64,000 nucleotides of DNA from the NCBI RefSeq assembly GCF_055900595.2, contig NZ_CM148325.1; one strand, given 5' to 3'. The translations under genes and the position numbers were made by a program. Within the stretch, counting starts at the first letter, position 1; every line of letters begins with the position of its first letter. This document shows positions 6,393 through 7,961 of the stretch, piece by piece. The notes beneath the pieces are model-generated. The model saw nothing but the letters and a program-made list of their open reading frames with translations, did not search any database and was not told the origin of the DNA.

Positions 6393-6402
6393 ACGTGATT
6401 GC

Positions 6403-6660
6403 CTGATGCGATGCATGCGCGTCCTGTCATGCCTCCGGGCATTGCGCATATGCGCATCTGGCGATTTCCGTCGCTTACCCTAAATCCGCCATCAACACCT
6501 TTGATTTGATGTAGGTCGGATAAGGCGTTCACGCCGCATCCGACGATGAGCGTCAATACCTGATGCGATGCTAGCGTGTTTATCATGCCTCCAGGCATTG
6601 CGCATGTCGCATCTGGCGATTTCCACCACTTACCCCAAATCCGCCATCAACACTTTGGAT
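6403..6660. repeat. Imperfect direct repeat (two ~100 bp units) flanking a REP element in the recD-argA convergent intergenic region
   Basis: Units starting cctgatgcgatgc...catgcctcc(g/a)ggcattgcgcat...ctggcgatttcc...aaatccgccatcaacac occur at about 6403-6500 and 6559-6660; the second unit contains the argA 3' coding end. Confidence 0.55.
6507..6545. repeat. REP (repetitive extragenic palindromic) element
   Basis: Sequence gtaggtcggataaggcgttcacgccgcatccgac matches the classic REP/PU palindrome pattern. Confidence 0.6.
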
Positions 6661-7961
6661 TTACGCTGGTAGTTGTACAACTGCTTTTTGCTCTCGGGCA
6701 GTAAATCAATATCCACCGGGGTAAATCCACGTTCCTGGAACCAGTGAATACTGCGCGTGGTCAGTACAAACAATTTGCTTAATCCGCTTTGCTTCGCCTG
6801 AGCGGCAATGCGCTCCAGCAAAACCTCGCCCCTTGATGAGCTGCGGTAATCCGGGTGAACGGCCACACAGGCCATTTCCCCAATCTTCTCTTCCGGGAAC
6901 GGATAGAGTGCTGCGCAGGCAATAGTCGTGTTATCGCGCTGAATAATAGTGAATTTGTCGATTTCCATCTCCAGTTGCTCGCGAGAACGGCGTACCAGAA
7001 TACCTTGCTGCTCCAGTGGGCGAATCAACTCCAGAATGCCGCCAATATCGTTGATTGTTGCGCGACGAATTTGCTCGGCGCTTTCCATCACAATCTGCGT
7101 ACCGATACCGTCACGTGAGAACAACTCTTGCAACAGCGCGCCATCTTCCTGGTAACTAATTAAATGACAGCGACGTACGCCGCTGCGGCAGGCTTTCACC
7201 GCACCACGCAAAAAGCGCACCGTACCGGAGTTGTAATCGCCTTTCTCTTCCTGAGCTTCTACCCGCGCTTGTGCTTCGTTAGGGAAAAGCTCGGAGACAA
7301 TATCGCCGTCGTCATTAGTGACGCCCTGTGAAGAGCAAAAACCAATCATCTTTTCAGCTTTCAGTTTGATGGCCAGTTGAGTGGCGATCTCTTCCGAGGT
7401 CAGATTAAAGCTCTCGCCAGTGACTGAAACCGCGACCGGCCCCAGCAGCACTATCGCACCGCTGTCCAGTTGACGATGAATCGCATCTTCGTCAATCCGC
7501 CGGATACGCCCGCTATGGCAGTAATCCACACCGTCATCCACGCCCAGCGGCTGGGCAATAATAAAATTGCCACTGACGACGTTGATATGCGCGCCCTGCA
7601 GCGGCGTGTTATTGAGACTCATCGACAGGCGAGCAGTAATGTCCAGTTGCAATGTTCCCGCAGCCTGCTTCACCAGTTCTAGTGTTTTGGCGTCGGTCAC
7701 GCGTATATTTTTGTGATATAGCGGTTCGTGGTGATGCGCTGCCAGATTCGCATCGATCTGCGGGCGCGCTCCATAGACCACGACCAGACGGATGCCGAGG
7801 CTGTGCAGCAACCCGATATCATTAACGATACTGGAGAAATTCTCATGCTCAATGGCTTCACCGCCGAGCATGATGACAAACGTTTTTCCCCGGTGGGTAT
7901 TGATATAAGGAACCGAATGGCGGAATCCCTCGACCAACTCGGTTTTACGTTCCTTCACCAC
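6630..7961 (-). CDS. argA: N-acetylglutamate synthase
   Basis: Translation [33 protein letters not shown]... ending ...KVLMADLG; start trimmed from ORF track (6630..8033) to the GTG start of the known 443 aa protein. Confidence 0.9.

Follow-up and report, generated by a model that had tools for sequence, protein, structure and literature searches.

The closest described relatives of the element analysed here are the BIME-2 clusters, and we use y, z2, S and BIME-2 as defined by Bachellier and co-workers and as given in the part of Ton-Hoang et al. 2012 (PMC3333891) on which this account draws. According to the same part of that paper, BIME-2 copy number differs between strains, and the REP-associated transposase TnpA_REP has been found in vitro to bind REPs that carry GTAG, to cut single-stranded DNA at C/T (the slash marks a cut or a join throughout) more than 400 nt away, and to join the resulting ends. 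A model of BIME amplification by TnpA_REP is published there as well, in which units are added through two cuts, one near a REP (the REP-proximal site) and one at another C/T, possibly in flanking DNA; the part in question makes no mention of the capture of flanking coding sequence. REPs have been described as stabilising elements of 3'UTRs that also act as partial terminators, and expression is reported to be higher in convergent gene pairs that have REPs (preprint 10.64898/2026.03.23.713779). The Rfam model of the small RNA naRNA4 (RF02564) derives from a BIME-2 cluster.

The spacer between the convergent genes recD and argA, which we analysed in a 64,000-nucleotide stretch of the E. coli contig NZ_CM148325.1 (hereafter the window), is a degenerate BIME-2-derived cluster, an "atypical" BIME in the terms used in the portion of PMC3333891 cited above. 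Like the BIME-2 clusters, it has a y REP with a GTAG foot, an inverted z2 REP and a short S linker, belongs to a dispersed family, is arranged in tandem with a varying number of units, and lies between convergent gene ends. Unlike them, it lacks tail-to-tail joining by the short s/l/r motifs: 74 nt separate the proximal z2 tail (6436) from the y foot (6511), this stretch contains a decayed y REP as well as 33 nt from the argA reading frame, the stop codon included, and the GTAG foot of z2 has been lost. The unit period is 156 bp here, compared with 139 bp in E. albertii and about 93 bp in the canonical array that E. whittamii carries at the same locus.

Three further systems invite comparison. 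As in the REPIN/RAYT systems and the TnpA_REP model (PMC3116915 and the cited part of PMC3333891), the repeated core is an inverted REP doublet, but the junction at this locus has no clean C/T signature and the enzyme is here only a candidate. A two-hairpin y-S-z2 unit at 6514-6589 aligns with naRNA4/REP325 (RF02564; PMC4550694) over the full 77-position model, with 54.6 bits and an E-value of 7e-9; it differs in lying at another locus and in scoring below the gathering score of 59.5. Direct repeats around a short palindromic element also recall the target-site duplications of IS elements and MITEs, but those are 2-14 bp long and identical, whereas the repeats here are about 114 bp long and 84% identical, the apparent insert is half of a larger repeat unit, and the array reaches three units. 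Transposon insertion with target-site duplication was rejected on the length and divergence of the repeats and because the element runs on into the distal repeat as a BIME pair. In the papers searched, which did not include the original BIME surveys, we found neither a repeat unit containing the 3' end of a flanking gene nor a description of this allele.

Layout of the recD-argA spacer

The arrangement of recD and argA in the window agrees with the RefSeq annotation of E. coli strain Z0117EC0005, which shows 100% identity to the window over 6250-6800. Between the two stop codons lies a spacer of 237 bp; it and the adjoining gene ends are made up as follows.

4566-6392, plus strand: recD, from the open reading frame list, with its TAA stop at 6390-6392
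6393-6400, no strand assigned: S'-like linker ACGTGATT, which with the recD stop region aligns loosely with the S linkers of the window and of the aceA-aceK and yjjV-yjjW BIMEs
6401-6436, plus strand: proximal z2-type REP GCCTGATGCGATGC...GCGTCCTGTCATGCCTCC, matching the z2 consensus with 3 mismatches (0 such matches expected by chance)
6437-6462, no strand assigned: proximal decayed y REP (linker and y, the latter lacking about 19 nt internally), compared with the intact l-y of E. whittamii and of the divergent Escherichia genome L017 at the same position
6444-6455: perfect 12-bp palindrome GCGCATATGCGC, inside the proximal decayed y REP
6463-6474, no strand assigned: proximal 12-nt linker GATTTCCGTCGC, from allele alignments; it stands directly before the argA stop in other alleles
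6475-6507, minus strand: orphan copy of the last 10 codons and stop of argA (a'), still open, with three synonymous differences from the real end
6508-6510, no strand assigned: 3-nt junction GAT between a' and the y REP, from allele comparison
6511-6544, plus strand: intact y-type REP GTAGGTCGGATAAGGCGTTCACGCCGCATCCGAC, with a GTAG foot and an AA/GC stem mismatch; its core at 6518-6541 fits the y pattern with 0 mismatches
6545-6557, no strand assigned: 13-nt S linker GATGAGCGTCAAT, between the y and z2 REPs, which stand head to head
6558-6592, plus strand: distal z2-type REP of 35 nt, shorter than the proximal copy by a 1-nt deletion
6593-6617, no strand assigned: distal decayed y REP, from alignment with the proximal unit
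6618-6629, no strand assigned: distal 12-nt linker GATTTCCACCAC, from the sequence and allele alignments
6630-6662, minus strand: real argA stop (6630-6632, from the open reading frame list) and last 10 codons, the repeated part of the functional gene, from the reading frame end, annotation and alignment

Two observations concern the flanking genes themselves. The argA reading frame reported by the program (6630-8033, TTG start, 467 aa) is longer than the RefSeq gene of 1,332 nt including the stop, and its surplus N-terminal residues come from read-through upstream of the gene and do not belong to the protein. A single base, 4566, is shared by the end of recB and the start of recD, an arrangement consistent with translational coupling.

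Local alignment places the direct repeats at 6394-6507 and 6551-6662, with 96 of 114 columns identical (84%) and two 1-nt gaps. The alignment score of 134 compares with 15.8 +/- 2.1 for shuffled sequences (maximum 27, n=300), and a separate repeat search of the sequence returned the same two blocks. The initial annotation of this DNA, which had proposed two repeated units and named less than 70% identity between them as the point at which the proposal would fail, is borne out in this respect. It was also right that the distal unit supplies the true argA end (...KVLMADLG-stop), where the reading frame of the gene terminates, and that a REP palindrome, the y REP at 6511-6544, lies between the units. 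Local alignment found no homology beyond 6507 and 6662 into the REP or into argA. We also considered a leftward extension of the repeat, with the 3' end of recD as a decayed y REP in a full 156-bp tandem duplication, and rejected it, as alignments of the recD end with the y region and with the first unit scored at shuffle level.

About two-thirds of each unit is REP-derived, with a z2-type REP followed by a decayed y-type REP, and argA accounts for 33 nt of each unit of about 114 nt (6475-6507 and 6630-6662). Starting at the first z2 REP, the order of parts within the composite unit (about 156 bp) is z2, decayed y, the 12-nt linker, the last 10 codons and stop of argA, 3 nt, the intact y and the 13-nt S linker, and about 1.7 tandem copies of the unit are present in this lineage. 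The proximal unit had been described as a decayed copy of the gene end. It does copy the end of argA, but only over 33 nt, and in this lineage the copy is not decayed: on the argA sense strand, a' reads AAA TCA AAG GTG TTG ATG GCG GAT TTA GGG TAA and differs from the real end at three sites, each a third codon position and each synonymous. In a search of E. coli genomes with a 44-nt query, the argA fragment occurred at one place per genome and at a second place only in the 130 carriers of the duplication; it is not part of a dispersed repeat.

A canonical BIME-2 pair is made up of the central y REP, for which a hairpin with a 2x2 internal loop is predicted, the 13-nt S linker and the distal z2. 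The picture of a lone REP between two copies is thus right about the presence of a REP and incomplete about its nature, since the other half of the pair is the first third of the distal unit. In each E. coli genome, at least 40 places match the segment 6505-6600 across 95% of its extent, with identities of about 80-84%, and y-S-z2 aligns motif by motif with the BIMEs of aceA-aceK and yjjV-yjjW, as well as with the BIME downstream of ycfP. Both z2 REPs, proximal and distal, have a degenerate GTAG/CTAC foot (CTCC). At 11 of 13 positions the S linker (6545-6557) agrees with the linker GATGAGTGCCAAT at the same locus in E. whittamii; S-linker matches at 82-87% identity also occur in 1,335 genomes, the one example examined being at another locus, downstream of ycfP, so the linker is only partly unique to this locus and its resemblance to that of E. 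whittamii is supportive rather than decisive. One other y-type REP core is present in the window, at 17507-17530 on the minus strand, with 2 mismatches to the pattern.

The 12-bp palindrome GCGCATATGCGC singled out by the initial annotation is present in the proximal unit but finds no support as a feature in its own right. It is limited to this haplotype, since neither the distal unit nor the other duplicated haplotype, described below, has it, and is most likely incidental.

Allelic forms in E. coli and related species

Most E. coli strains, K-12 and O157 among them, have a 61-bp recD-argA spacer, and some have a spacer of 81 bp. The 81-bp allele is a single unit (z2, decayed y and linker) homologous to both units of the window. 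The 61-bp spacer (K-12 locus L001, 444-504) corresponds to the 81-bp allele minus 20 nt, with the tail of z2 lost, and what remains in K-12 is a pair of facing REP heads forming one hairpin with a 12-bp stem that is common to both convergent genes.

The two-unit form was found in 130 of 5,426 complete E. coli genomes (2.4%), as two haplotypes that are 89% identical. Ninety-seven of these carriers are at least 95% identical to the window, many of them poultry isolates and some labelled APEC (e.g. O78:H4), and the allele is almost invariant within 88 genomes; the remaining 33 carry the second haplotype, with 89% identity to the window. The two units of the second haplotype are closer to each other, at a distance of 0.12. 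Within each haplotype, haplotype-specific bases are common to both units: GATGC contrasts with GACGC or GACGT, CATCTGG with CATCCGG, TTTCC with TTTTC, and CCTCC(A/G)GGCATT with TGGGGGCATT or TTGGGGCATT. Because both units of each haplotype share such bases, the pattern fits gene conversion between the copies, as judged from sequence comparison. Pairwise distances between units sort cleanly neither by position nor by haplotype, which argues for a mosaic history.

In the second haplotype (loci L011 and L013), the last ~50 nt of recD (locus positions 315-363) also carry a run of synonymous variants, CGT AGC GGG ... GCA. These variants are common to E. whittamii and in part to E. albertii, whereas the recD sequence further upstream and the other flanks are coli-like, and the alignment suggests a short patch that may have been introgressed or anciently retained.

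The wider distribution was surveyed by scanning one genome per species, which recovered the recD-argA locus in 80 Enterobacteriaceae, most of them with a spacer of about 25-50 bp. Distances between argA and recD of 667-1,158 bp, against this usual 25-50 bp, were seen in Klebsiella spallanzanii, Pluralibacter gergoviae and Winslowiella arboricola (L062, L081 and L090), and suggest inserted genes or elements in those three species. The fullest form of the cluster found at this locus is that of E. whittamii Sa2BVA5 (L016, 2272-2557), whose 286-bp spacer holds three z2-(10-nt linker)-y-S units and is free of any argA fragment. Its last y REP is followed by GATTTCCATCGC and then by the argA stop, with the same 12-nt linker before the stop, and the y-S of the window resembles that of this resident array. 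The divergent Escherichia genome L017 has a decayed z2 and an intact y at the locus, and a lone unit resembling the 81-bp allele is present in the type strain of E. albertii. Judged by these alignments, the decayed y of E. coli is what remains of the final y REP in an ancestral array. An array of the canonical E. whittamii type is absent from this locus in the E. coli genomes, where it matches only BIME-2 arrays elsewhere, at 82-87% identity.

A third copy-number state was found in metagenome contig JFBN01359691.1 (L097, 433-795), which belongs to E. albertii, its recD being 99.9% identical to that of the type strain. Its array comprises three units and two a'-y junctions (TRF period 139, 2.5 copies), and both of its orphan argA ends have a deletion of 7 nt. 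The reading frame of a' is also broken, by a frameshift, in the second E. coli haplotype, and the 3-nt a'-y junction, GAT in the window, is TCC in that haplotype and TTC in E. albertii. Two of the synonymous changes in a', TCA and AAG, are nonetheless common to every copy in both E. coli haplotypes and in E. albertii. Because they share these two substitutions, the copies appear to have a single origin, and the comparison indicates one event that would either be older than the species split or have been passed between species. The locus is not a footprint left by one event private to this strain, as one-, two- and three-unit forms segregate at the locus and the duplication occurs in two E. coli haplotypes and in E. 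albertii.

Origin of the composite unit

We think it probable that the spacer is a BIME-2 cluster whose composite unit arose by local amplification or unequal exchange with one breakpoint in argA, and was subsequently shaped by changes in copy number and by gene conversion. On this account, the founding event would have been a local BIME amplification or an unequal exchange in an ancestral Escherichia array that still had an intact y REP and S linker, as present-day E. whittamii does. The two breakpoints would lie at the foot of a y REP, at its GTAG end, and within argA, some 11 codons short of its stop. As the copy would have reached back through the true end of the gene, argA would have stayed intact and the spacer would have gained an orphan end. 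Ordinary homologous unequal recombination between units would then explain later increases and decreases in unit number, the three-unit allele included. The initial annotation had read the arrangement as a possible footprint of REP-mediated duplication; in so far as the 3' end of argA is duplicated with a REP between the copies, and in a REP context, that reading stands, although the units themselves turn out to be mostly REP.

Several agents may have brought about the founding event. One candidate is template switching or unequal crossing-over at short homology, such as that between ACGCTG-GTAG in argA and GCTGC-GTAGG in the E. whittamii array. A clean join at the GTAG microhomology (argA ...ACGCTG/GTAG... 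with y REP /GTAGG) predicts GATTTACGCTGGTAGG, so that the allele would read ...GGATTTACGCTG/GTAGGTCGG..., but the observed junctions GATTT-GAT-GTAGG, GATTT-TCC-GTAGG and GATTT-TTC-GTAGG are each 3 nt shorter than this prediction. When metagenomes were scanned for an argA end with a y REP foot within the next 8-30 nt, no intermediate with a pristine junction emerged, the one contig recovered being the three-unit E. albertii array, and no coli allele with an intact y REP but without the argA fragment was found.

A second candidate agent is TnpA_REP, which, acting on the y REP, might have cut a distant C/T site inside argA and so copied the gene end into the array. The y REP has the GTAG, and argA reads CGC/TGGTAG near the breakpoint. 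The z2 REPs at this locus, on the other hand, are without the GTAG foot that the enzyme needs, the junctions GAT, TCC and TTC do not reproduce a clean join, and we consider this particular route unlikely. If it were correct, the locus would provide in-vivo evidence for a long-range cleavage so far seen only in vitro, and would imply that clusters of REPs are able to copy the 3' ends of neighbouring genes and, in doing so, to shield them.

The third candidate is integration of foreign Escherichia DNA, with one end anchored by homology in argA and the other attached by an illegitimate join some 11 codons from the argA stop of the recipient (homology-facilitated illegitimate recombination), such that the units would come from different lineages. 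The 16% difference between the units is far above typical within-species divergence, which is what such a history would leave, although REP sequences may simply evolve fast. The differences between a' and the real end are all synonymous, as if a' had diverged inside a working gene (with a probability of about 0.009 that all three would be synonymous, and of 0.045 for the two changes common to all a' copies), yet an a'-type end occurs in no functional argA among the 5,426 E. coli genomes and the sampled Escherichia species. The last ~50 nt of recD in the second haplotype do carry variants typical of non-coli Escherichia; against this, the haplotype-specific bases in both copies fit duplication followed by gene conversion. 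On balance, a foreign source for one of the units seems to us quite unlikely.

Insertion of a lone REP into the spacer, with a target duplication of about 115 bp that would make the two units the duplicated target, would account for the position of the intact y REP (6511-6544) almost exactly midway between the homologous blocks and for its absence from the single-unit 81-bp allele. This y REP, however, belongs with the 13-nt S linker and the distal z2 to a canonical BIME-2 pair, and because the S linker hardly differs from the one in the resident E. whittamii array, y and S are probably native to the locus rather than newly inserted. The third unit in E. albertii, moreover, fits tandem amplification better. 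Transposases of a family related to TnpA_REP make no target duplications, according to the part of PMC3333891 used here. We regard insertion of this kind as improbable. The size of the duplication is a further obstacle to it, for we know of no element that generates one of about 115 bp.

Probable effect on the flanking genes and possible uses of the locus

Local amplification of a BIME-2 cluster remains our preferred explanation for the locus. In one-unit and two-unit alleles alike, the same REP hairpins, which would serve as terminators or stabilisers of the 3' end, follow directly after the stop codon of each convergent gene. The second unit would give each gene its own set of hairpins instead of a shared one. 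Because the same hairpins follow each gene in both alleles, the extra unit probably changes little: its likely effect on recD and argA would be small, and the two-unit element is probably near neutral.

That the element has instead been selected for a function, as a naRNA4-type small RNA or a small protein encoded in the spacer, rather than being a by-product of REP activity, is highly improbable: the naRNA4 match at 6514-6589 (E-value 7e-9) falls under the gathering score and would be expected of any y-S-z2 pair, and the role of naRNA4 in chromosome compaction is itself questioned (preprint 10.64898/2026.03.23.713779); the spacer is predicted to fold more stably than shuffled sequences on both strands (z of -3.4 and -4.9), but a consensus scan found no promoter or intrinsic terminator within it; a' is still open over 10 codons and a stop, but the small open reading frames of the spacer are short and not conserved, with a' frameshifted or carrying the 7-nt deletion elsewhere; and the two-unit allele, nearly invariant in 88 genomes, has a second unit that is missing from 98% of E. 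coli.

The two-unit allele is a real but ordinary copy-number variant, and this locus leaves knowledge of argA, recD and REP function unchanged. It does document an atypical BIME in which the repeat unit contains a piece of coding sequence, and it combines copy-number variation across species (E. coli and E. albertii) with concerted evolution between copies. The recD-argA spacer is therefore a possible test site for the growth of BIME arrays, and the two-unit allele, which 2.4% of complete E. coli genomes have, many avian-pathogenic isolates among them, may be of use as a minor marker of lineages. The orphan fragment of 10 codons and a stop also deserves the attention of annotators, who risk taking it for a gene end or for an assembly error.
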